DNA of 64,000 nt from a virus. Every line of letters begins with the position of its first letter. Within the stretch, counting starts at the first letter, position 1. The notes under the pieces are model-generated. The model did no database searches. It saw only the letters and a list, made by a program, of their open reading frames with translations, and was not told the origin of the DNA. The DNA lies in the IMG/VR virus record IMGVR_UViG_3300049844_000277, positions 36,520-100,519 of that record; one strand, given 5' to 3'. The position numbers and the translations under genes are program-made. Shown piece by piece: positions 1 to 45,946 of this stretch.

Positions 1-1203
1 AAACATTCCCGTAGACCCGAGTTGCTCAAGAAGCTGTGGGTGCTGTGCGAATAGGTCAAAAATATGACCTTGCATAGCTATAATACCGTCCAGCACGTGG
101 TCTGGAATCTGGGTTCCGGGCGCTAACCGCTCCACAATCATCTTAACAAATTCAGGCGTAGTGAGAATAACGCCAGCAGCGGACAGCGTAGAAAGCACCT
201 GCGCGACGGGATACTTAGATAAAGACTTTAGCGTATCGTCGTCGAACGACGGCATTCGCTGAACCGCGGGAAGAATCATATCGCGGTAACGCTGAATACC
301 GACGGCTTCCTGTTCAGACAAGGGCGACGTTTTGTGGTCAACTGCTACGCCTCGCACAATTTTATCAATGTCCGCGATTTTACGAATAGCAGCGCGCTTC
401 TCGTCCATCGCGTCTAGGTACTCACCGAGTTCAGCGGAGGTGCGTATGTTATACGCATTCTCTTCGGCTACTTTTTTGATCATATAGCCCGTGAGATCAG
501 CTGGCTTGGTTACAAAACTCAAATCGAAGAACTTTGGAGATGGATTGAGAGCTCCAGCGCGCAAGCCGCTAGCGGTTACTTGTCGCATTCCAAACTTTAG
601 GTGATCACAATACTGTTTACGTGTCGGAGCTTTGTGACCACAAACTGTGCAAACATCGTAGGCTATACGGGTTCCCATGCTTACAGCCGGATATTCTCCA
701 TCCGCGATCCGTTCCGCCAAATCCGGCGCGAGCTCATTCCTAAGTCCTAGGAGCAGCTCAACTCGATGCATTTGGGAGTTCCAAAATGCTTTGAGAATGT
801 CGCCGCAAGATTTCAGCGGATCTTTATTAAGATGGTGCCTATAGATCTTCCCGTGCGTCTCAAAACGCTTGTAATGATTCGGTAGAACTTCTTCTTGCGT
901 GACCCACGCGCCATCCGCCTGACAACAACCGCAAGTAGGTTTGAAACCGGTCTTGTAGGGGAACTCGTTGAAGCCGTCGCCATTACGGTTTAAATCGTAG
1001 GTTTCGTACGCTCCTAGCGCGATAACAAGAACAATGCTTGTTCCAGGTTTCGGCTCCACCGCTTTGATGTACTCAGACGCCTCGCTAGCCGTCTTAGTGA
1101 ACTTTTCACGCAAAGGTCTACCGTTGGCACCCCATAGAAGTACCGGTTGAACCGTTGCTTCGCCTGTAGCGAAGTGCGTGTCTAGTTCATAGATTTTCTT
1201 CAC
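1..1203 (-). CDS. Hypothetical protein, partial (C-terminal part lies beyond the window start). Several Cys pairs (CGCC, CTVCGH).
   Basis: Manual minus-strand translation gives an uninterrupted frame from a GTG at 1203 down to position 1. An AGGA Shine-Dalgarno sits about 9 nt upstream (acgAGGAttattcgcGTG). The ORF is absent from the track only because its stop is outside the window. Confidence 0.5.
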   Translation of the reverse strand, partial: MKKIYELDTHFATGEATVQPVLLWGANGRPLREKFTKTASEASEYIKAVEPKPGTSIVLVIALGAYETYDLNRNGDGFNEFPYKTGFKPTCGCCQADGAWVTQEEVLPNHYKRFETHGKIYRHHLNKDPLKSCGDILKAFWNSQMHRVELLLGLRNELAPDLAERIADGEYPAVSMGTRIAYDVCTVCGHKAPTRKQYCDHLKFGMRQVTASGLRAGALNPSPKFFDLSFVTKPADLTGYMIKKVAEENAYNIRTSAELGEYLDAMDEKRAAIRKIADIDKIVRGVAVDHKTSPLSEQEAVGIQRYRDMILPAVQRMPSFDDDTLKSLSKYPVAQVLSTLSAAGVILTTPEFVKMIVERLAPGTQIPDHVLDGIIAMQGHIFDLFAQHPQLLEQLGSTGMF

Positions 1204-1817: not shown

Positions 1818-2825
1818 TTAGTGCCCTCCGTACGTGGGCCGAGCATCCGCGATAGATCGCTCAGTATCCACTAAATTCTTGATAGTGGCATAATTTACGC
1901 CCGAGCCGCCAAGTACGGCTTCTCTAAGAAAAGACCTAACAGCATTAACATCTAAAGAAAGAGTAGGCGCGAATCTTACCATTGTACCGTAAGACTCTTT
2001 AAGCATCGACTTCGCCTCGGGATTACGCGAAATCGCGTCGCTTAGAACTGGGTCGGATTTGAGTAAAGTCTCGAATAGCGCTTTACGACGAGGTTCGACC
2101 ATAAAATGGTCTCTAAGCGCATCGAAACTCGTACCGATTCCGTGCGCCATTAAGCTAACCAGTGCTCCACCCGCTGACTGCCCTAAGCCTTTACCTAACC
2201 CTTCAACTACATTCTTTTGCGAAGATTCCCAGAACGTGGGTTCCGGCGGTAACGAACGTTTTACAGCACGGGACGCAGCTCTTGCGACAGCCGCTAAATC
2301 TTTTCTACGTTGTGCCCTTACTGCCGGAGGAATCTGGAAAGATGGTGTAGCTGCTTCCTTGGTCATCGAATGGAGCTCAGCTTTTTTCTCCAAAAACTTA
2401 TCCAGACTGGCGGTAATAACTCTCGTTGGATCCGCGTAAGCGTTCATGAGTTCTTCCTCATTTTGTCTCTGGGAAGCGTCAAAGGCTTTACCAAGTATAG
2501 GCGCTAAAAACGCAGTACCTATGGCGGCTCCAGCCAATCTAGGACGCTTGGAAAGAAAACCGTGTGCGCCCTGTAAACCTCGCGCTAAAACACCTGACTC
2601 GTTTGACGCAGGGGATAAAAATTTATCAATACCTCGACCAACGGTACCCGCTAAATTCTTAACACCTTCCGCGGTTCCCTTAGCGCTTTCAATAAGCGCA
2701 AGGCCACGACGTAGGTGTCCTCGTTGACCTTCGGGAAGCTCGGTGAGAACCTCGCGCGGATCTCTTCCGAGAGCCGTCTTCTCGAACAAAGCATCCACGT
2801 ATTCTTTAAAGAGTGCGTTATTCAC
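1818..2825 (-). CDS. Hypothetical protein (335 aa)
   Basis: Long ORF with a GTG start immediately after the upstream gene's stop, suggesting translational coupling. No motif recognised. Confidence 0.55.
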   Translation of the reverse strand: MNNALFKEYVDALFEKTALGRDPREVLTELPEGQRGHLRRGLALIESAKGTAEGVKNLAGTVGRGIDKFLSPASNESGVLARGLQGAHGFLSKRPRLAGAAIGTAFLAPILGKAFDASQRQNEEELMNAYADPTRVITASLDKFLEKKAELHSMTKEAATPSFQIPPAVRAQRRKDLAAVARAASRAVKRSLPPEPTFWESSQKNVVEGLGKGLGQSAGGALVSLMAHGIGTSFDALRDHFMVEPRRKALFETLLKSDPVLSDAISRNPEAKSMLKESYGTMVRFAPTLSLDVNAVRSFLREAVLGGSGVNYATIKNLVDTERSIADARPTYGGH

Positions 2826-34143: not shown

Positions 34144-37100
34144 GTGCCCACAACCCGAGGAGCTCTCATGGAGAAGCCCGCAGAAATCTGCAGCGGATGT
34201 CCTCGAGAAATCGAGACAGAGACCCATCCCTACGGTTATGTTGAATCGTGGATTGATTCAAACGCCGAACTCATCATCATAGCGGAAGCTCCTGTCTGCG
34301 ATCGCCACGGTAACGTTCCTAGCTCTTTCGACGATGACAGCGGTAAAATCATTCGAACCGCCGTATCCGAGCTACGTAACTTACCTTCGCACAGTAAGCT
34401 AGCGGTCTCGTATACGTACGCAGTACTCTGTACAAGCAACCAGGGCGACAAAGACCCCGAAAAAGCCGTACTGCAACGGTGCCGTACGCTGCTCCAAGCT
34501 GACTTACGTCGCGCAAACAAGAACGCCGTCCTGCTGGTAATGGGTATGTCTGCCCTTCGCGCACTAGAAATAAAAGCCGCGAAGTTGAAGGACATGCAGG
34601 GGCGATTACTCCAAAAGCAGAAAATTGGAGAAGGTGATGACGCTCCGATATTCGATGTCGTCGTAACCGTCTCGACAAAACAGTTGTTCGCGATGCCGGG
34701 AATCTACACGACGTTCGTAGCGGACCTGCGACGAGCTGCGGACGCTGCGAGCGCAGGTGGATTAACACACGTTACCCCACTCGAAAAACTAACCGAAAAA
34801 TACGTAATCCCGAAAACAATCGAAGAAGTACGCCAAATCTGTCGCGAAATACTGAATTATCAAGAAGGTAAAGTATCTGCAGATAACTGGCCTATCTCTG
34901 TAGACACCGAGACAAACACCAAGTTTCCACACCGAGAAAACTTGAAAGTATTGGCGGTGTCCTTCGCATGGGCGGAGGGTAAAGCTACTGCAATTCCATT
35001 AGAGCACCCCACTACACCCTACGCGTACCAAGACGCGATACCGTACGTACGCGAAGTCTTAGCGAGCAAGAAGCCGAAGTTCCTTCATAATGCTAAGTTC
35101 GACCTTAAAGTCTTCATGAAAGCGGGCTGGCCGATTAACGGGTTCGCTTGGGATAGCATGCTAGGGGAACATGCTCTCGAAGAAGATAAAAAGGGACAGT
35201 ACGGATTAAAGCAGTTGACCCGTACTTTCTTCCCGGAATTCGCGACATACGCCGACTCTCTTCAAGAAATGCTCACGCACGAAGAGGGCGACTCGCAGCT
35301 CGACAACCTGAGGAAAGCGCCAAAAGCTTCAACTTCGAAAGATGGGGGATTTGAAAGTATCCCACTTCCCACGCTATTGCTTTATGCGGCAGTCGATGCA
35401 GATATGACACGGCGGCTAGTGTTACTGCAGGAAAAAAGAATTACCGACGAGCAGAACAGAGTAATCGTAGAAACGAATATAACGAAGAGAGAGCAGGCGC
35501 TGGCGATTTCGGCGAGGAAGAAAATACGGCTGAGAATTGCGCCGCTACATAGTGAGACGGAGATGTTGAAGAAGTACATGGTGCTCTACCCCGTCCCAGA
35601 ACTCTGTTCCGCTGATAAGCCGGTAAGACAACTAGTACTGAACAACGTATTCCCCGTTACCCCAGCTCTCGCGAGAATGGAGTTTAAGGGCATACGGATA
35701 GACAGACCGTACCTAACTACGTTGCGTGAAGCGTTGGGAAAAGTCGTCACAGAAACCGCTGCAGAGCTACAGGATATGGCGGGCAGAGAGATAACTCTCA
35801 ATAGTCCGGCAGAGATAGCTGAAATCCTGTTCAACAGCGGGTTTATACATCCAACAACTCACGCCCCCACGACTTATCCCCTCACAGGCATCGGTAAGAC
35901 AAAAACGGGACAGATACAAACCACCGAGAAAGTGATGCAGTACTTGGTGGCGAAGTATCAGTGCCCCTTTGCAGCTAAAAAACTAATCTACGCCAAGGCA
36001 TATAAAGCGAAAAATACGTTCTGTCAGAATGTGTGGGATCTCTCGGAGCTCGACGGGTATCTACACACGAACTACAACCAGCACGGCACAAATTCGGGTA
36101 GACTGTCCTGTGTCGCGGGAGAAACCGTACTAGATACTAATTACGGAAAAATCGAGATACAGAATCTCGATCTGGAGAAGATGCCGGGGATTACCATCCA
36201 GACCCACGAACTCCGCGAACAACCGATTCTACGTAAAATAGAAAAAGGCATTGAAGAAATGTTCGAGGTCGAACTCGAAGACGGGCGCACCATCACCGTG
36301 ACTAAAAAACATCGCTTCTTGACGCCGACGGGGTGGAAACGACTCGAGGAACTGTCAGAAAATGCCGAAATACTCTGCGCCGCCTCCGTGGGTAGTGGAC
36401 CAAATATGCGACTCGTTACAACCCGGATAAAAAGCATACGTCCCGTAGGTCCTAAGAAAGTCTGGGACCTCACAGTAGCGGTCGATCACTCTTACATCGC
36501 CCACGGATTTGTTAACAAAAATTCCAACGATGAAAACATGCAAAACATCCCCAAGAAATTGGCGGGTGTTAACATTAAGAAAGTGTTCCTCCCGGACGAT
36601 GATTCGTATGTCTTCGTCAACGCTGATGCGAAGGGTGCCGAAGTACGAATCCTAACCGCCTACTGCCGAGACCAAGCGCTCATACAATCGCTCAACGCGG
36701 GGCAGGACACGCATTGTTTCATCGCGTCCAAGATTGTTGAAATCGTACGTCAGAGTCCTGGTGCAACGGCGGTTCTCGGAAGCATGAATCTAAGCGATGA
36801 GTATCCTCTGACGTACGAAGACTTCGCGGCTAGAGACAAGCTAAAAGAAACCAATAGTAAGTACGGGGCGATGCTCGACAAATTCAGAACCGCTGTCAAA
36901 CGCGTAGTGTTCGGTATTCTGTACGGCGCCGGTCCTCAGAAAATTGCGGAAACTATTGGTATCAGTCTAGAGCAAGCACAACAGCTCATTCACACTCTGT
37001 TCGCTTTGTTTCCGTCCATCAAGACGTACATGGCGCAGACAAAGTGGGAACTACAACAATTTAATTTAGTCGAAACGTTCTTCGGTAGACGCCGTAGATT

Positions 37101-37527
37101 TAGTGTATCGGGAGCGCCGAAGTATCAAATAGGGAGAGCTGAACGTCAGACAGTTAATTTTAAAATCCAAAGCACAAGCTCTGATATCGTAATGGGACGA
37201 TTACTAGCAATCGAAGAACCTCTCAAAGATTTGGGAGGTAGACTTCTATTGACAGTGCACGACAGCCTTGGGTTTCAAATCAAGAAAAAATATATCCGAC
37301 AGCTACCTGATTTCATTTATACGTATTTGGAGAAGGGTGCAGCAGACGCCCATCCATGGCTCCCAGTCGCATTTAAATGGGACTACGAAGTTGGGTCATC
37401 ATACGGCGAACTCAAATCACTGGAATCCTACCTTGCCAACACGAAAATAGAGGAATACTCGAACGATGCCTACGTCGCCGAGGCTTTCACAGAAGAAGAC
37501 GCAAGAACCTCCCTCTCCGAACCCTGA
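34144..37527 (+). CDS. polA: Family A DNA polymerase (Pol I-like) with a 3'-5' exonuclease domain, interrupted by a mini-intein.
   Basis: - Exo I: ISVDTETN.
- Exo III: YAAVDADMTRRL.
- Pre-motif A GRLS//SNDENMQNIP matches GRLSSSDPNLQNIP.
- Motif A: FVNADAKGAEVRIL.
- Motif B: RTAVKRVVFGILYGAG.
- Motif C: LLTVHDS. Confidence 0.9.
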   Translation: MPTTRGALMEKPAEICSGCPREIETETHPYGYVESWIDSNAELIIIAEAPVCDRHGNVPSSFDDDSGKIIRTAVSELRNLPSHSKLAVSYTYAVLCTSNQGDKDPEKAVLQRCRTLLQADLRRANKNAVLLVMGMSALRALEIKAAKLKDMQGRLLQKQKIGEGDDAPIFDVVVTVSTKQLFAMPGIYTTFVADLRRAADAASAGGLTHVTPLEKLTEKYVIPKTIEEVRQICREILNYQEGKVSADNWPISVDTETNTKFPHRENLKVLAVSFAWAEGKATAIPLEHPTTPYAYQDAIPYVREVLASKKPKFLHNAKFDLKVFMKAGWPINGFAWDSMLGEHALEEDKKGQYGLKQLTRTFFPEFATYADSLQEMLTHEEGDSQLDNLRKAPKASTSKDGGFESIPLPTLLLYAAVDADMTRRLVLLQEKRITDEQNRVIVETNITKREQALAISARKKIRLRIAPLHSETEMLKKYMVLYPVPELCSADKPVRQLVLNNVFPVTPALARMEFKGIRIDRPYLTTLREALGKVVTETAAELQDMAGREITLNSPAEIAEILFNSGFIHPTTHAPTTYPLTGIGKTKTGQIQTTEKVMQYLVAKYQCPFAAKKLIYAKAYKAKNTFCQNVWDLSELDGYLHTNYNQHGTNSGRLSCVAGETVLDTNYGKIEIQNLDLEKMPGITIQTHELREQPILRKIEKGIEEMFEVELEDGRTITVTKKHRFLTPTGWKRLEELSENAEILCAASVGSGPNMRLVTTRIKSIRPVGPKKVWDLTVAVDHSYIAHGFVNKNSNDENMQNIPKKLAGVNIKKVFLPDDDSYVFVNADAKGAEVRILTAYCRDQALIQSLNAGQDTHCFIASKIVEIVRQSPGATAVLGSMNLSDEYPLTYEDFAARDKLKETNSKYGAMLDKFRTAVKRVVFGILYGAGPQKIAETIGISLEQAQQLIHTLFALFPSIKTYMAQTKWELQQFNLVETFFGRRRRFSVSGAPKYQIGRAERQTVNFKIQSTSSDIVMGRLLAIEEPLKDLGGRLLLTVHDSLGFQIKKKYIRQLPDFIYTYLEKGAADAHPWLPVAFKWDYEVGSSYGELKSLESYLANTKIEEYSNDAYVAEAFTEEDARTSLSEP
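36109..36522 (+). mobile_element. Intein 5: mini-intein (138 aa, no endonuclease domain) in the DNA polymerase.
   Basis: - Starts CVAGETVLDTNYGKIEI.
- Ends VWDLTVAVDHSYIAHGFVNKN with +1 Ser.
- Boundaries codon-verified (tgt at 36109 = Cys; aat at 36520-36522 = Asn). Confidence 0.8.
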
Positions 37528-38793: not shown

Positions 38794-40398
38794 TTACGCG
38801 TAGAATTTCAGGTCATTAGACACAAGCTTATGTGCAAACCATCCGAACAGTTGTGCATGAAGACAATCGTCAGGTAATTGGGGACTGTGTCGCCAAACCT
38901 TTTTACCTGACGACGTAACTTCTTCATAGACGTTCAGAATATCTTTAATCGCTTCACGTGATTCTTCTCGTGGCGGATATACAACCGAACCCCGCTTCAG
39001 AAACATGAGATAGTTATCAATCATCGTCGTGCGGTCAGCGAGATACCTGTCCAAGCCATTGTGCTTTATCGGCTGACCTAACGCTCCGTACTGCATCATG
39101 TGCACGCGGTGAGCGCCTAGACGGTCTCGTAGCGTCGCATTAGGTAGTGCGCCTTCGCCAGCGTCACCGATGACCATCGCAACAGCGTAATGCTGGCAAA
39201 TCGCAGCGATATTCTCGACATCTGCGACGGCGTTGCTTCCTGGGTAAATTCGGAAGTAGAGCGTACGTAACTTCTGTGTTGCGGGATGAAAGCCCCACAC
39301 CCATAGGACCGTACGGCTAACGCCCGTCGTTCCGCCGCCCGACCAATCAACGCCGGCAACAGTAATCGAACAGCCTTCCAAATTTTTACCTGGCGTAGGG
39401 GATATCTGGGGGCCTGTGCACAGTGCTTCGAGCTCCTCCAGTGAAATAAGTCTACGACCTACGGCATCTGATACACCCAAGACCTCATTGCGGAACTTAG
39501 CCGCGGAAAACATGTCATGGTCACGGAGGATATCATCCCAACGCGCCTGAGCGTCCTCGACTGCACTCGGCTTTTCGGGCGTATTTTTTACACACGACGG
39601 GATGTTCAGCGGCATAATCAATTGAGAAATGTGAAAGCCTTTAATGGAGTGTTTTCCAGTACCCTTGTCGGCAATACGCATATCGATCCACTGCCCTGCG
39701 CGGGGATTTAAAACCTTCCCACAATTAAGACAAATGGGGCCGTGTTTACCGAGAGACTTCTCACTAATAACGAAGTTGTATTTACTACACCCCTCGCACT
39801 TCATCACCCATTCGCTCTGAGAAGACTGATCCCACAAAAATTGAATGGAGTTCTCCATAGTTTTCGGAGTTCCGGCGTAAGTTTCGAACCGGTACGCGGA
39901 ATTCTTCATACACGCCAAAATTACGGGAATGACACTGTCGTATAATACGTCCTGTACTTCGTCAAACAAACAACGGTCAGCGGAAAAACCACGCGCACGA
40001 TCCGCGTCATCGGTCGCGTACGTGAACCCGTTCTCTGACCCGTTCGTATACGACCGATGTAATACGCGATCCGCGTGATCTGGAGATAAGAAGTATTTCT
40101 TAATCAACGGCGAATACGACAATGTTTTACCAACACGCGTGTTAGAGAACAAGAGAGTTTGCTCGCGTGAAGGACTGGAATAGTAACTCTTGAAAAATGG
40201 GCGAGAAACAGATTCAGATATAATAAAGTTAGCCAGAGATGTGCTTTTACTGACCTGACGCGCAGTCATCAGAAGCGTCGATTTATAACCTCCGTCATAT
40301 ATCGATTTGAAAAATGGATAGTCTGTAAGACTAAAGGGAGCGCCGTCTAGCCATAATAGACGCTCAGCCACTTCCGAAAGACGTTTACTTCCAATCAC
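38794..40398 (-). CDS. terL: Terminase large subunit (ATPase + nuclease).
   Basis: - Walker A-like: TARQVSKSTSL.
- Walker B: RCLFDEVQDV.
- C-terminal RNase-H-like nuclease region: VAGVDWSGGGT.
- Overall 534-aa architecture typical of TerL. Confidence 0.8.
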   Translation of the reverse strand: MIGSKRLSEVAERLLWLDGAPFSLTDYPFFKSIYDGGYKSTLLMTARQVSKSTSLANFIISESVSRPFFKSYYSSPSREQTLLFSNTRVGKTLSYSPLIKKYFLSPDHADRVLHRSYTNGSENGFTYATDDADRARGFSADRCLFDEVQDVLYDSVIPVILACMKNSAYRFETYAGTPKTMENSIQFLWDQSSQSEWVMKCEGCSKYNFVISEKSLGKHGPICLNCGKVLNPRAGQWIDMRIADKGTGKHSIKGFHISQLIMPLNIPSCVKNTPEKPSAVEDAQARWDDILRDHDMFSAAKFRNEVLGVSDAVGRRLISLEELEALCTGPQISPTPGKNLEGCSITVAGVDWSGGGTTGVSRTVLWVWGFHPATQKLRTLYFRIYPGSNAVADVENIAAICQHYAVAMVIGDAGEGALPNATLRDRLGAHRVHMMQYGALGQPIKHNGLDRYLADRTTMIDNYLMFLKRGSVVYPPREESREAIKDILNVYEEVTSSGKKVWRHSPQLPDDCLHAQLFGWFAHKLVSNDLKFYA

Positions 40399-40426
40399 AA
40401 GTTAAACCGTGGTAGGAAATGATTAA

Positions 40427-40627
40427 ATGAGCAACGTTGGACAGGAAAAAACTGTACAAGGCGAAAATTATTGGGACCGCTGCGTTATGCCACGGATTAC
40501 TCCGTACGAAGGATCGACTCTAAGCGTAGCATATAAGTGTTTCGAACTAGCCTGTAGAATCACACGATCCTTTCAACGCAAAAACATTCTTAGCGATAGT
40601 AGCGAATACGTAAGGGTCCTCGTGTAG
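40427..40627 (+). pseudogene. Gene fragment: diverged duplicate of the N-terminus of the 41213..42496 ATPase gene, overlapping the 3' end of the HNH gene on the other strand.
   Basis: MSNVGQEKTVQGENYWDRCVMPRITPYEGS versus MSNTAQNSVATTESYWDKYGIPRVTLHEA (start of 41213). Confidence 0.35.
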
Positions 40628-41185
40628 TAAGCCGAAAGCAGCATTACAATTACCGTGCGCTAACCCCCGAACAACGCCTGTAGTGTGGTCATGGTCAATT
40701 TTCGGAACCTCAAAAAGAGGGCGATCGCATAACCAACAACGTCCCGACTGAGCGATAAGTAACGTATGCCATCGGGAAAGAGTTAGTCCGTAGGTGTGAC
40801 GTGCACGGTGTCCTGGATTAGCGAGACGCCACGCTTTTGTACGCGCTTTCGCCGTTGCCGAATTAGCACGGTAGTACGCAGCTTGATACTCTCTAATCTT
40901 ATCGCGGTTACTAGCGTAATATTTCGAAGCACGAGCCTTTACTTTCTGCGGATTAGCTTTACGGTAGTCAGCTCTTTGTAATCGGATCTCTTCCGCGTGC
41001 TCCTCCCTATAATTCTTACTGTACTTCTTAATCCGAGGCGCATTCTTCTTACTATATTTTTTCTGCTGTGCGCGAATTTCCTCACGATGCGCGTAATAGT
41101 ACTGAGCCGCCAATATTCTCGAGCAGGGCGCGCATCGCCCATCTTTGCGTTTCTCCGTACTCCCACACTTGTTACATTTTCCCAT
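40547..41185 (-). CDS. HNH endonuclease, adjacent to terminase, with a basic repetitive N-terminus.
   Basis: CWLCDRPLFEVPKIDHDHTTGVVRGLAHGNCNAAFG (HNH core). N-terminal CNKCGS...C zinc ribbon. KKYSKKN...KKYSKNYREEH repeats. Confidence 0.75.
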   Translation of the reverse strand: MGKCNKCGSTEKRKDGRCAPCSRILAAQYYYAHREEIRAQQKKYSKKNAPRIKKYSKNYREEHAEEIRLQRADYRKANPQKVKARASKYYASNRDKIREYQAAYYRANSATAKARTKAWRLANPGHRARHTYGLTLSRWHTLLIAQSGRCWLCDRPLFEVPKIDHDHTTGVVRGLAHGNCNAAFGLLHEDPYVFATIAKNVFALKGSCDSTG

Positions 41186-41212
41186 TTACACAATATACAC
41201 TAGAGCAAACAT

Positions 41213-42496
41213 ATGAGCAATACCGCGCAAAACAGCGTAGCCACCACAGAAAGTTATTGGGATAAGTACGGGATTCCTAGAGTAACACTTCACGAAGCCC
41301 TTGCACAAATTGAACTCTCCATTATCTACAATCAAACAAGAGGAGTTTTTTGTTTAATCTCAGAAGCTGGAGAAGGAAAATCGCAAGGAATTCACCAACT
41401 AGCTCGAAAACACCGAAGGCGTGTGGTGGACATCCGAACATCGCAATTTTCTATGATTGGCGCAGGTGTTCCCCAGAGAGCAGACGAAACAGGGCACTTC
41501 AAAATCGCCATCCCAAATGATTACCCGAAACCGGGAGAAAAGTGCCTACTAGTATTCGATGAAATCAACCAAGGGCAACAACACGCCGTAGCGCTATTTT
41601 TCAAACTATTGGAAGATCGAGGAATCTACGACTACACACTCCCCAACGATTGCATCATCGTTGCTTTGATGAACCCCTCGACCGCGAACTACTCAGTCAC
41701 TAAAATTGAAACTAATTCAGCTTTTAACAGACGACTACAAAAACTCTACGTATACAACACTTTCTCCGATTGGAAGAAGCACGCACAAACAAACGACTTC
41801 CACTACACAGATGGGCTTCAGAAGCCCTGCCATCCGATGGTTGTACGGTTGCTCACAGCTACTCCCGCCATGCTGTATACCGCCAAGGATAGAGACGGGA
41901 ATAAGCAGTATGCCTGTCCCGCAACCTGGCAGACCGTATCTCTGTCGCTCTACAACCTCGCCGATGCGGGCGTGGACCTCACAAGTGAGCGAGCGGAGAA
42001 TCGAATCGCCGCGTCTATCAATATCGTCAACGCGCGGATGCTCGTGGAGTTCATCAAGAACAACGAGATACTCATCGGCCCGGAAGAAGTTCTGTTCAAG
42101 TACAAGCCGAAGAGCAAGCTTCGAGAGCGAGTGCTCGAAATACAAAAGGAGCCCGGCGGTACGTACACGCAGCTCGTAGAAGATGTCGCGCAATACATCT
42201 TCCGCGAGAGACCGGAAGCCGAAGTCATCGCGCCCAACCTCGTTCAGTTCTGGCACGATATGCCGGTCGAACAAGCGCAGCCGTTCTACCAAATGCTAGA
42301 TGCTGCCTGTCAGGCACACGGCGGTATCAAGGAGCCCAAGAACGTTCAGTACATGCAGGCGCTCACCACCGCGAATCGTCAGTATCCGCTGTGGAAAGAA
42401 ATCAACGACAGAATCAACCGCATTCACGACGAGGTCGAGAAGAAGATTCATGGGCGAGGGGTCGGGAAAGACCCCATGCTCAGTGCTCAAATGTAG
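41213..42496 (+). CDS. AAA+ ATPase, MoxR/AAA_5-like.
   Basis: Walker A LISEAGEGKSQG. Walker B LLVFDEINQG. Sensor IIVALMNPS. Confidence 0.75.
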   Translation: MSNTAQNSVATTESYWDKYGIPRVTLHEALAQIELSIIYNQTRGVFCLISEAGEGKSQGIHQLARKHRRRVVDIRTSQFSMIGAGVPQRADETGHFKIAIPNDYPKPGEKCLLVFDEINQGQQHAVALFFKLLEDRGIYDYTLPNDCIIVALMNPSTANYSVTKIETNSAFNRRLQKLYVYNTFSDWKKHAQTNDFHYTDGLQKPCHPMVVRLLTATPAMLYTAKDRDGNKQYACPATWQTVSLSLYNLADAGVDLTSERAENRIAASINIVNARMLVEFIKNNEILIGPEEVLFKYKPKSKLRERVLEIQKEPGGTYTQLVEDVAQYIFRERPEAEVIAPNLVQFWHDMPVEQAQPFYQMLDAACQAHGGIKEPKNVQYMQALTTANRQYPLWKEINDRINRIHDEVEKKIHGRGVGKDPMLSAQM

Positions 42497-43223
42497 CGAG
42501 CTCTCGACGCAGATGCTTGGTTCTATCTTCGACGTAACGCCAAGCAACAGCTAACCGGCCAAGCTGCGCCCCCAAGGCGGAAATATCGAACGTACGTGCT
42601 TTTCGTTCGAGCTCCTCCTTGGGGAGCGCTTGCCAAGCCGCTTCGGTTTCTTTTTGAAGCACTAAGGAATCCGCGCTCAATTTACTCGTCAACTCTTCCA
42701 ACGCGAATCCCAAGCCGACGGGTGGAAGTACTAGTCCCTCGTCGAAGAGAGATACACCGACGTACGCAGCGACGCTCTCGTCATATTCAGGTCGAGTAGA
42801 TTCACCATCAGTCAGCGCAAACAAGAGCTCCGCCTCAAAAGCGGCCCACGCCATCTGCGCTGAATCACACTTCGGCACGTCGTTCGGACTTACCATCTCC
42901 TGCGTCAAGGCGTGCGTCGTTGCGCCGAATACGCGGTAATCCCAGTAAAAGCTGGGAGTCAGCGCGAGCGCAACACCCGCCATTAATTTATCTCGATTCG
43001 AGGTGTGGATGGGTAGTTCGTGCCATAGCGTTTCAGGCTCGTAAGCCGTGAAATGTGGACCCAGTAAATAACGGGCTGATACAAGTAAGGCTGTTGCAGA
43101 CGTATCTGCGTTTTGTAGCAACTCTTTAGCGGTCTGCTCGTGTACGGACGTAGGGATGCGGAAATATGCCGCATAGGCTTCCTTTACTGCGAGACGTTGT
43201 AGCTCAGAAAGCGTCATCGACAA
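42480..43223 (-). CDS. Hypothetical protein (247 aa).
   Basis: ORF. Confidence 0.5.
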   Translation of the reverse strand: MSMTLSELQRLAVKEAYAAYFRIPTSVHEQTAKELLQNADTSATALLVSARYLLGPHFTAYEPETLWHELPIHTSNRDKLMAGVALALTPSFYWDYRVFGATTHALTQEMVSPNDVPKCDSAQMAWAAFEAELLFALTDGESTRPEYDESVAAYVGVSLFDEGLVLPPVGLGFALEELTSKLSADSLVLQKETEAAWQALPKEELERKARTFDISALGAQLGRLAVAWRYVEDRTKHLRRELATFEH

Positions 43224-44239
43224 TGCGCCCTCAACTGAAGCTTCAAATCCAGAGGAAGCGTATCGACTACAACAGCAAGCTTGGATTGGTCAACTTCACC
43301 CCCGGGTGCTACCTCATCTCGAAGTTCCTTGCCGCCTAAATCTTCCCAGAAAGAAGCGGGAAGCGCTGCTATCTTCTTCATCGGAACAAACGTACCACCC
43401 AAATCAACAGAATGGGCCGCCTGCTTTTCCGTATTGAACACCGTCCTCACGGCATCCGGAAGATTTCGGTCGTAGTGCTTATCTAAACCTGACTGCTCGT
43501 CGAGCTCCGCGAGAACCGACGCAAACTTCATCAAGCCTTTTCGATCAAAAATTTCTACAGGCTTCTGCTTCAAGCCGTCCGCCAAAGTTTGATACGCTAG
43601 CTTAAATACCTTCGCATCTTCGGGAAGCTTGTTTGCACGGGCCTCAACCCAATCCCGCGCGGTCTTCGTATTCGAGACTACGAGTCCCGCGAGTTGTAGG
43701 ACCTCAGGGCGGAGCTCGACGTTAAGCTCATCTGCTCGCTTCACCAACTCCGCGCAGGCCGAGACACGGTGCTCCATATCCAACTTGGGCAAGGACTCTA
43801 CCAGTTCTTCTTGTGCCCGCTTACACTGCTCAGGATTCGTCACACGAAACAGCCTAAGAGTTGGTAAAAGATATTGATTATCCTCCGAAGCTACCTTCGC
43901 CGTCTCCTCTTGGAAGATAGATTCAGGAACGGCGTATACCTCTAACGCCTGCGCGATATTCGCGCGTACCTCCTCAGGAAGCTCCGAAGCTACCTTTGAG
44001 TACGCGTAGCTCAGCATGGCGTGCTCAGGTGTATGAAGAGGAAATTTTCGCTCCGACGGCCAAGCAAAGGCCGAATCGGGAAGCGCATCAGCTTCACTCG
44101 GCTCTATCGTCGCCTGCTTAACAAACTCCTCCATAGCAGGCATACGGTTGATCTGCCGGTACAAGGTACCAAATGCGGTATCGGAAAATTGGTCAATCGC
44201 TGACATTGTTGACCTCTGCAAGAGAAGACGTCGCGTCAA
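43214..44239 (-). CDS. Hypothetical protein (341 aa).
   Basis: ORF overlapping the previous one by 10 nt, suggesting coupling. Confidence 0.5.
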   Translation of the reverse strand: MTRRLLLQRSTMSAIDQFSDTAFGTLYRQINRMPAMEEFVKQATIEPSEADALPDSAFAWPSERKFPLHTPEHAMLSYAYSKVASELPEEVRANIAQALEVYAVPESIFQEETAKVASEDNQYLLPTLRLFRVTNPEQCKRAQEELVESLPKLDMEHRVSACAELVKRADELNVELRPEVLQLAGLVVSNTKTARDWVEARANKLPEDAKVFKLAYQTLADGLKQKPVEIFDRKGLMKFASVLAELDEQSGLDKHYDRNLPDAVRTVFNTEKQAAHSVDLGGTFVPMKKIAALPASFWEDLGGKELRDEVAPGGEVDQSKLAVVVDTLPLDLKLQLRAHCR

Positions 44240-44251
44240 GAGTATAGGCGG

Positions 44252-45946
44252 ATGTTGGGAAGTGAGCCAGCATACTTCTTAAAGGATATCCAAAAAATGT
44301 CAAACCAGCCTGAACAAGAAAATGCACTCCAGAAATCGATGGTTTTCTGGGTGTCCCGCCGAGGAGCCTCTAACTACTGGGCCTCGGTCGTGAATGGAAT
44401 GAATAAGAGGTTCTCTAACGACGAAGGAACAATGTCGGTGCAGCTCACAGAGAACTGGAAATATATCCTCACCTGCCATCTTCCAGCGTTCGAATCGTGG
44501 TCGCCGAGAATGCGACTACTTGCTCTCGTTCACGAATGCGCTCACGTAGTTCTTCAGCACATTCCCCGGCTGTTCAAGATGTTGGCCAATTGTACAGACC
44601 CGTTCGTACGCACAGCCATCACATCGACGTTCAACTTCGCAGCAGACTTCGCGGCGAATGACGCAATCGTTCGACTTGAAGACGGATTCACAGAAGCGCA
44701 CAAAGCCTTCATGCACGTCAGTCCAGACGGAAAGCCGATTCCTCTCTCCAAAGAAGAAGAGGAGAAACTTCCCGGTGAATGGCCATTTCTTTTGCCAGAA
44801 GAATTTGGACTACCTCGTGGAAAGACAATGGAAGAGTACTTCGTGCTCATCCTCAAGGACCTCCCGAAGTTCAAACAACACGTCGAGGAGATGATGAAAA
44901 ACCTCGAACGTATTCTGAGTGAAATGGGGGAAGACTCCGAAGGAGAAGGAGAGGGAGAATCAGAGGATGGAAGTGGCGGCCAGGGAAAATCTCCCTCCCG
45001 TCGAAACATTCCACCTAAAGGGATTCCCGGCATTCCCGACGAAATCGTCAAGCACGCTCTCAACTCACCAGAGACCTTCGAGATGTTGCAGAAGGCCTTT
45101 GATAAGATTTCCAGTAAAGCACACAAGCAGTGGAACGAAAAAGCAAAGGAGATGACACCTGAGGAAGCAATCTCTGCGGGCAATAAGCTCAAGAAGCACG
45201 CGCAGACGATGGTCAGGGCCGCGAATGACCGCGTAAAGAGAGACCGCGGATTCATGCCCGGCGGAGTCCAGAAGATAATTGACGCGCTGATGGAGCCGGA
45301 CCAGATTCCCTGGGATTCAATTCTTCGAGACATCATTCACGGAGCAATAAGCGCTCGCGTTCAAGAGGAGATGGTCTCTCCGAATCTGTCTCTCATCAAC
45401 GAAGACTACTTGGAGCCGTGGCCTGGGCAAACATTGGAATTTGGCTTCAACATCACCTGGATGACCGATACCTCTGGTTCGATGGGTGATAGTGAATACG
45501 CGCGGGCGTGTAACTGCATGAACTCGCTGCTTGCGCAGAACAAGTTCGTATCCGTCACATACTGCGAGTGTGACGCCATCATGCAAAAGGAGGTGAAAGT
45601 CACAAACATCGAACCGCTCACAGAGGAATACTTGAGCGAGCTCCGTACACGCCGAGGATATGGAGGAACTGTCTATACGCCGTTCTTCAAGCGCGTAATG
45701 GGTGCGGATGAACCTCGGGATTGGATTGATGGCGCACCACGACTAGAGGATGCGCATCCCAAACCGGACTTAATGGTAATCTGCACGGATGGTGGCGTTC
45801 GTCTCATGGGAGAATGCTTCCCGAAGTATCGGCCAGAATGTCCCATCATCTGGTTGTTGATGCCAGGCTGCCATGCTACGACCGGAATGGATGATGTCGC
45901 GCCGGACCGGTTGATTCAGATGTATAAAATGCGGGAGGAGGAGTAG
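44252..45946 (+). CDS. Putative metallopeptidase-like (HExxH) + von Willebrand factor A domain protein. Likely partner of the MoxR ATPase.
   Basis: LALVHECAHVVLQH (HExxH). Acidic linker EDSEGEGEGESEDGSGG. MIDAS-like FNITWMTDTSGSMGD (DxSxS). This architecture commonly pairs with MoxR AAA+ proteins. Confidence 0.65.
   Translation: MLGSEPAYFLKDIQKMSNQPEQENALQKSMVFWVSRRGASNYWASVVNGMNKRFSNDEGTMSVQLTENWKYILTCHLPAFESWSPRMRLLALVHECAHVVLQHIPRLFKMLANCTDPFVRTAITSTFNFAADFAANDAIVRLEDGFTEAHKAFMHVSPDGKPIPLSKEEEEKLPGEWPFLLPEEFGLPRGKTMEEYFVLILKDLPKFKQHVEEMMKNLERILSEMGEDSEGEGEGESEDGSGGQGKSPSRRNIPPKGIPGIPDEIVKHALNSPETFEMLQKAFDKISSKAHKQWNEKAKEMTPEEAISAGNKLKKHAQTMVRAANDRVKRDRGFMPGGVQKIIDALMEPDQIPWDSILRDIIHGAISARVQEEMVSPNLSLINEDYLEPWPGQTLEFGFNITWMTDTSGSMGDSEYARACNCMNSLLAQNKFVSVTYCECDAIMQKEVKVTNIEPLTEEYLSELRTRRGYGGTVYTPFFKRVMGADEPRDWIDGAPRLEDAHPKPDLMVICTDGGVRLMGECFPKYRPECPIIWLLMPGCHATTGMDDVAPDRLIQMYKMREEE

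Follow-up and report, generated by a model that had tools for sequence, protein, structure and literature searches.

Probable scar of homing-endonuclease traffic between the TerL and AAA+ ATPase genes of a large environmental phage

In a 64,000-nucleotide (nt) stretch of viral DNA (IMG/VR record IMGVR_UViG_3300049844_000277, positions 36,520 to 100,519; hereafter the window), the gene of the large terminase subunit, TerL, and the gene of a MoxR-like AAA+ ATPase, here called AAA, are separated by a nuclease gene and by a 66-codon open reading frame (ORF) whose product resembles the beginning of the ATPase. How did the start of one gene come to lie on both sides of a nuclease? A preliminary description of this DNA, which correctly listed the ORF at 40427..40627, the nuclease ORF on the minus strand and the AAA+ ORF at 41213, saw here the scar of a nuclease insertion or homing event. 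That view is borne out below by nuclease-less relatives, by a matched pair of loci with and without the nuclease, and by the lack of any independent version of the small ORF. With good probability, in our view, the region arose when a free-standing nuclease cassette of the Endonuclease VII (Endo VII) type, also named DHHRN, went through an aberrant homing or recombination event. The old AAA gene is interrupted near nt 117 by a segment of ~815 base pairs (40532..~41345), composed of the nuclease gene, a 27-nt variant spacer and ~130 nt of AAA 5' end. Left stranded beside TerL are the native spacer and ~115 nt from the beginning of the native AAA gene; the working copy of AAA is a hybrid that has acquired a new start. 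The locus is laid out as follows.

38794..40398, minus strand: TerL, terminase large subunit (GpA-type ATPase), the left neighbour; ORF with a PF05876 match
40399..40426, no strand: native TerL/AAA intergenic spacer, 28 nt; alignment A4 and spacer comparison
40427..40531, plus strand: remnant, hereafter R, the displaced native AAA 5' end; AAA nt 1 to ~115
40427..40627, plus strand: 66-codon ORF (66 residues); reading continues from the remnant into the antisense of the nuclease 3' end
40532..40546, no strand: junction filler, 15 nt, from the remnant end to the nuclease stop codon; left, illegitimate junction, with no homology to relatives
40547..41185, minus strand: free-standing gene of a predicted Endo VII-type (DHHRN) nuclease, 212 residues; PF02945 and PHROG matches
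41186..41212, no strand: spacer, 27 nt, a diverged version of the TerL/AAA spacer, apparently imported with the cassette; comparison with L003 and nuclease-less spacers
41213..41345, plus strand: probably foreign 5' tract, hereafter F, of the working AAA gene, ~130 nt; divergence, breakpoints, codon positions and neighbour-joining tree
41213..42496, plus strand: MoxR-like AAA+ ATPase gene, intact hybrid, 427 residues; ORF with a match to PHROG 1297 'ATPase'

What did this junction look like before the event? We collected 27 distinct related loci on phage contigs of ~180-196 kb (IMG/VR, JGI metagenomes, assembly index); two contigs, L027 and L028, carry 100% identical copies of the window locus. 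For cultured relatives, blastn of 38794..43300 against 50,697 phage records gave no match, and tblastn of the AAA protein against phage records returned only distant (<30% identity) MoxR-like ATPases of jumbo and other phages. The preliminary description had proposed a comparison with related genomes that lack the nuclease gene. At 24 of the 27 loci, TerL and AAA are indeed adjacent and divergent, their start codons an estimated 13-59 nt apart, with no nuclease and no room for a gene. Only the window (with L027 and L028) and two further loci, L003 and L029, have a nuclease gene between the two. In the ancestral state shown by this comparison, a few tens of bases separate TerL from a divergently oriented AAA+ gene.

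L003 and L029 carry the cassette in a canonical form: the nuclease gene and a variant spacer lie exactly between the TerL and AAA start codons, co-oriented with TerL, the nuclease stop codon overlaps the TerL start, and no AAA fragment is present. A nuclease-less locus, L019, is nearly identical to L003. The two show no mismatch in the 1150 nt of TerL nearest the junction, a 3-nt indel at about TerL codon 4, and AAA genes identical at 910 of 911 positions; the 24-nt spacer of L019 gives way in L003 to 480 nt holding the nuclease gene and a different 25-nt spacer. Because the spacer itself differs, the pair reflects allelic replacement via homologous flanks and not a simple deletion, and because a spacer is swapped for nuclease plus variant spacer between nearly identical flanks, the cassette is mobile. 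Homing-endonuclease genes are inherited by allelic replacement through homologous flanks. The sporadic presence and absence that marks such a gene is found here, with three carriers against 24 non-carriers; the flanks of L003 and L019, at 99-99.9% identity, are too alike to reveal a conversion tract. More speculatively, their comparison suggests that the putative target spans the TerL start and the spacer.

Other candidates were set aside. L012, whose identity to the window equals that of L003, is only 83% identical to L003 itself, and L019 is the true with/without partner. An intron-borne endonuclease was dismissed, since no Rfam match occurs in the region beyond a chance match to a long non-coding RNA (E=0.42). 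The same holds for an insertion sequence or transposon, given no meaningful inverted or direct repeats and no terminal inverted repeats. The G+C content across the insert, 0.44-0.51, is not distinct from that of the flanks.

Which of the two gene starts in the window is the native one? The 66-residue product had been described as about 45% identical to the first 30 residues of the AAA protein. The homology stands, with a lower figure: 12 of 29 residues (41%) are identical in a gapless alignment from residue 1 of both proteins (pairwise BLASTP, E=3e-7). The match is recovered at E=1.8e-5 by tblastn over all six frames of the 64-kb window, and by these two E-values the similarity exceeds chance. 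It also reaches further than described, as the homology of R to relatives' AAA genes extends past 29 codons to ~40531 (AAA nt ~115), with a deletion of 10 nt and an insertion of 1 nt on the way. A nucleotide alignment of the two copies, likewise proposed in the preliminary description, confirms their homology through conserved islands (ATGAGCAA, GAAA.TTATTGGGA and CACGAAG), with only 45 of 87 positions (52%) identical.

R is collinear with the TerL-spacer-AAA junction of the relatives, in the ancestral position beside TerL (alignment A4). Its DNA shares 63-70% identity with the 5' ends of close relatives, compared with 52% for the AAA start of the window itself, and over its 29 residues the corresponding figures are 52-66% and 41%; tblastn segments of 25-28 residues match relatives' AAA N-termini at 56-72%. 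In a distance analysis the nearest neighbour of R falls within the close clade in 200 of 200 bootstraps. Mismatch to close relatives at codon positions 1, 2 and 3 is distributed as follows.

Window AAA, nt 131-1230: 0.14, 0.09, 0.53
Remnant R, nt 1-87: 0.14, 0.31, 0.59
Working tract F, nt 1-129: 0.37, 0.26, 0.72
Among the relatives themselves, nt 1-129: 0.14, 0.12, 0.44

At positions 1 and 3 R resembles native sequence, and its excess of mismatches lies at position 2; F is much more diverged and saturated at position 3. The second-position excess of R gives rise to Y19C, G20V, L26P and A29G, I21M being a third-position change. Three of these replacements, Y19C, I21M and L26P, fall at positions invariant in alignment A2 (three of the nine invariant positions in the first 29 residues). 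Since R lies beside TerL, clusters with close relatives and has suffered indels as well as replacements at invariant residues, it is, judged by its sequence, the native AAA 5' end, displaced. Its pattern is what one would expect of a stretch that coded for protein through most of its history and began to decay only recently.

Where, then, does the working start come from? F has 55-61% nucleotide identity to close relatives, against 73-77% downstream in the same gene, and lies outside the close clade in the neighbour-joining tree. Sliding windows and the maximum chi-square method place the change-point at AAA nt 127-145 (41339..41357; permutation p < 0.004). The latter method finds a 5' breakpoint in 9 of 11 comparisons; as control pairs among relatives also score high (a variable 3' end, real mosaicism), we used it only together with the codon-position analysis. 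The 27-nt spacer 41186..41212 resembles the 25-nt cassette spacer of L003, so the donor probably had the canonical TerL<nuclease<spacer>AAA layout. In the simplest reading, ~130 nt of AAA 5' end were probably imported with the nuclease from a more diverged lineage.

Several points weigh against this account. No donor was found among all sampled lineages, F being 53-65% identical to each, so its foreign origin rests on an excess of divergence over ~130 sites. The ratio of window-to-clade divergence in F, 1.9, lies within the range of TerL, 1.6-1.9; because of this overlap, the argument leans on the codon-position and site-pattern analyses. At the protein level, close relatives are about as far from R as from the working N-terminus. 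The N-terminal features TTE, PRVTL and NQTRG, common to the window and L029, also occur in nuclease-less genomes, L030 and L116 among them. Finally, plain illegitimate recombination between co-infecting phages would be expected to produce the same structure.

A nuclease-linked N-terminal haplotype was considered and rejected: the closest-looking N-termini, P0044 (18 of 19 over residues 11-29), P0027, P0039, P0040 and P0048, all belong to nuclease-less loci. At the nucleotide level they are no closer to the window's AAA start. The native 5' end shows no sign of an embedded conserved element, relatives' third-position mismatch being 0.45 over nt 1-87 against 0.35 in the rest. Elsewhere in the group, the AAA genes of L004 and L011 differ by 12% over the first 690 nt and are identical afterwards, a sharp boundary of recent recombination within the gene.

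What kind of nuclease is encoded at 40547..41185? The preliminary description called it HNH. The protein matches PF02945 (E=2.9e-13, 49.9 bits against a cut-off of 23.6) and the PHROG 'endonuclease VII' families, and is thus a beta-beta-alpha-Me nuclease of the Endo VII type rather than a classical PF01844 HNH. The defining DHHRN motif consists of a central DHDH, an N-terminal CX2-4C, a C-terminal CX2C-N and a conserved arginine (D40, H41, H43, R54 and N62 of T4 Endo VII). By alignment and PF02945 the nuclease carries this motif: C150/C153, D164, H165, D166, H167, R173 and N181 align to the T4 residues, and the second zinc pair is H177...C180 instead of CxxC, with a histidine replacing one zinc cysteine (RGLAHGNCN). 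The motif occupies the C-terminal part of the protein, residues ~144-187 of 212, behind a zinc-ribbon-like CxxC...CxxC N-terminus and basic helical repeats. Similarity to T4 Endo VII is confined to this 44-residue motif (residues 144-187 to T4 17-68, E=0.012); nothing aligned to T4 residues 69-157, the C-terminal dimerisation half, and the full-length similarity of a T4 gp49-type Holliday junction resolvase is absent.

In this family, endonucleases carry the motif at the C-terminus and resolvases at the N-terminus, followed by a dimerisation domain (PMC6083498). By motif position, as opposed to phylogenetic placement, the nuclease falls on the side of the endonuclease clade. The type case is F-CphI, the free-standing homing endonuclease with an Endo VII motif encoded by ORF177 of cyanophage S-PM2 (PMC6083498). 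Like it, the window nuclease has CxxC...DHDH...R...N with all catalytically important residues, bears the motif C-terminally behind a putative DNA-binding part, and is encoded by a free-standing, sporadically distributed gene in a large phage. Unlike F-CphI, to which it has no detectable similarity outside the catalytic motif, its N-terminal part has the zinc-ribbon-like CxxC pair and the basic repeats, a histidine stands for one zinc-ligand cysteine, no intron insertion site is associated with it, and it is known here from sequence alone. We classify it as a predicted member of the Endo VII/DHHRN endonuclease class, of the F-CphI type.

The window nuclease is 42% identical to that of L029 (BLASTP/tblastn; 53% over aligned MAFFT columns) and 32% to that of L003 (tblastn; 43% over aligned MAFFT columns). 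These three same-site nucleases form a subgroup of their own, with RGLAH..N against RGLLC..CN in other family members. The L029 nuclease (325..813) reads RGLAHTQYN, has lost the cysteine aligned with C61 of T4 Endo VII, and may be a degenerating copy. Genes with the Endo VII motif and similar N-terminal repeats are abundant in viral contigs. One of them is an Endo VII-type paralogue of 32% identity on L053 (IMGVR_UViG_3300045051_000909, contig positions 1-6025; match at 2124..2525); in this genome, shared with L006, the nuclease is absent from the TerL/AAA site and the paralogue lies at a different position. In the window, an 8-codon mini-ORF on the minus strand (ATG TTT GCT CTA GTG TAT ATT GTG TAA) fills the spacer 41186..41212 exactly and ends right before the nuclease ATG, perhaps by chance.

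How could the present arrangement have arisen? During a co-infection, a nuclease-less genome would have been broken and repaired from a more diverged carrier genome. The right-hand exchange would have been homologous, within AAA near nt 127-145, with co-conversion of the gene start, and the left end would have been joined illegitimately, not within TerL but ~15 nt beyond the stop codon of the nuclease. The stranded fragment would later have gained two indels and several second-codon-position changes, leaving the ORF as a read-through. That the nuclease itself made the initiating break is something we infer.

The preliminary description had read the scar as a duplication of the target's start. 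Such an in-place tandem duplication of the AAA 5' end in this lineage, for example as a by-product of insertion, followed by divergence and the decay of one copy, would account for two homologous copies that both begin at their own ATG and flank the nuclease gene; homing-endonuclease breaks can also drive local rearrangement and amplification, as in phage T6 (PMC13096335). The relation of the two copies speaks against it. With C as the consensus of the close clade, R agrees with C and F differs at 17 of the 87 aligned sites, F agrees with C and R differs at 13, and R agrees with F against C, the shared-derived pattern, at only 4. From these patterns R and F share essentially no history apart from the relatives, and they are mutual nearest neighbours in just 1 of 200 bootstraps. 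Moreover, the constrained working copy is more diverged than the unconstrained fragment, whereas decay after duplication predicts the opposite, and the native divergence of codon positions 1 and 3 implies that the fragment was coding for most of the lineage's history. We consider duplication unlikely; R is the native end and F looks imported. A different objection concerns the role of the nuclease, which could be a functional terminase partner and not a selfish element, with the fragment incidental: either an HNH of the HK97 gp74 kind used for cos cleavage, as the preliminary description had offered together with a decayed paralogue, or a resolvase like T4 gp49. Kala et al. reportedly described in 2014 the terminase-associated HNH proteins of cos phages, of the HK97 gp74 type. 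As there, a beta-beta-alpha-Me nuclease gene directly adjoins the large terminase gene; in each of the three carriers this gene is immediately upstream of TerL and points the same way, and the overlap of its stop codon with the TerL start in L003 and L029 suggests translational coupling. T4 Endo VII, for its part, is needed to clear branched DNA before packaging. Yet this nuclease belongs to PF02945 and not to PF01844, and it is not conserved beside the terminase: it is absent from 24 of 27 loci with the same TerL, among them a locus whose TerL shares 99% identity with a carrier's. It also lacks the dimerisation half of T4 Endo VII, has its motif at the C-terminal end, unlike the resolvase clade, and in the window is separated from TerL by 148 nt. 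A terminase partner is accordingly quite improbable.

Might the 66-codon ORF itself be a genuine small gene that began as a recruited AAA N-terminus and serves, for example, as a regulator or as a partner of the nuclease encoded antisense to it? It keeps its ATG and an upstream AGGA, was called as a gene by gene callers on the identical contig L027, and, provided that the old AAA promoter is still active, would be expected to be transcribed from it; scans of 40100..41600 for sigma-70 promoters and intrinsic terminators found none. A conserved, independent version of the ORF in related genomes would, as the preliminary description pointed out, speak against a scar. No relative has such a gene: the sole tblastn matches are true AAA 5' ends and N-termini, and Pfam and PHROG give no match. 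The ORF has replaced the invariant Y19, I21 and L26, it bears both indels inside its homologous part, and it is known from identical copies only. Its overlap with the nuclease 3' end, noted earlier, amounts to 81 nt (40547..40627) and is confined to the non-homologous tail, whose 27 codons are plain antisense of the nuclease gene. A functional small gene therefore seems to us highly improbable. Judging from these features, the ORF is most likely an accidental read-through and no gene in its own right.

The TerL side of the junction has changed as well. The window TerL is 80-84% identical in amino acids to that of the relatives and its 5' region is collinear with theirs, but it starts with GTG and is 3 codons shorter at the N-terminus. 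Close relatives have a spacer 13 nt longer than that at 40399..40426, and the AACCACCACC motif conserved in theirs is missing here. This shortened spacer and the GTG start could, speculatively, represent a mutated, resistant form of the putative target site. As a separate observation, a conserved Shine-Dalgarno sequence similar to GGTGGTGG (AACCACCACC on the plus strand) is lost at 40396..40426, where the window reads AACCGTGGTAGG. In another relative, L007 (3248..6007, minus strand; same contig as L020), TerL has 920 residues owing to an in-frame insert of ~385 residues after ...FSADRC. The insert starts with CYAKGT, ends with ...IICGN|SFDEFQD, has a weak LAGLIDADG_3 match and looks like an intein at the Walker B region; the window TerL has no insert of this type.

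Is there a precedent for such a hybrid gene? Phage homing-endonuclease genes sit beside essential genes and at boundaries of genetic exchange (PMC10448857). The T4-like free-standing homing endonucleases Seg and Mob co-convert flanking markers (PMC2988022, PMC2790892); as with the window cassette, their genes lie between conserved genes, adjoin an essential gene and are inherited via homologous flanks together with adjacent sequence. Their nuclease family is different, and canonical intronless homing leaves no duplicate of the target, whereas one of the window's junctions is illegitimate and a fragment is left stranded. The closest analogue, though one to which the locus does not belong, is found in the mobile endonuclease ORFs (mORFs) of fungal mitochondria, which create hybrid genes in Allomyces (atp6) and Glomus (atp6, atp9, cox2, nad3): a foreign gene terminus travels with the endonuclease ORF, and the native one is retained and clusters with close relatives (PMC3630166). 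Here too an endonuclease ORF comes with an apparently foreign gene end, the displaced native end is kept as an unexpressed or decaying duplicate, and the native end groups with close relatives while the inserted end does not. The differences are that the window replaces a 5' end and mORFs a 3' end; that the nuclease is on the opposite strand and not fused in frame, as mORFs often are; that it is of the Endo VII type, where mORFs are LAGLIDADG or GIY-YIG; and that the window cassette resides in a phage and brings a replacement intergenic spacer with it. Our full-text searches yielded no description of a stranded gene start beside a phage homing-endonuclease gene, which is not proof of absence.

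The likeness may go further, although we give this only a slim chance. The Endo VII cassette would then be the phage counterpart of mORFs, routinely bringing its own replacement spacer and gene start, so that an essential neighbour could survive its arrival inside the 5' end. The native start might have been retained for a function, such as antisense transcription through the nuclease into AAA or expression signals for TerL, and the spacer 40399..40426 would be a mutated, cleavage-resistant target.

As it stands, the window nuclease belongs to a known class of selfish nuclease and has left an unusually legible insertion scar; it requires no new mechanism. The locus is a clear but ordinary case of homing-endonuclease traffic between phages. 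Its value lies in being a clean, datable example of how such traffic reshapes essential genes in large environmental phages, with a hybrid ATPase gene whose start appears to be imported, with the native start left stranded, and with L003 and L019 as a matched pair. It extends the little-studied free-standing Endo VII/DHHRN nucleases to a new phage group and offers the TerL/AAA junction as a candidate target that can be tested. Annotators should label the 66-codon ORF a gene remnant, and phylogenies should exclude the first ~130 nt of AAA.

Some minor features of the surroundings deserve mention. At L114 (4278..4969), two extra plus-strand genes, of 156 and 70 residues, lie between AAA and a gene of 241 residues; nothing lies there in the window. 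The family A DNA polymerase of the window (34144..37527, plus strand, 1127 residues) has an Intein_splicing match at residues 678-793, with 35.8 bits exactly at the Pfam cut-off, which splits its DNA_pol_A match and marks a probable mini-intein. The distant homologues of the AAA protein carry PF07728 (AAA_5), and the gene is paired downstream with a DUF2201 metallopeptidase/VWA gene at 44252..45946. A DUF2201 metallopeptidase/VWA-like protein is the usual partner of MoxR-type ATPases. The best PHROG match of this plus-strand ORF, phrog_1314, is labelled 'HNH endonuclease' and looks mislabelled.

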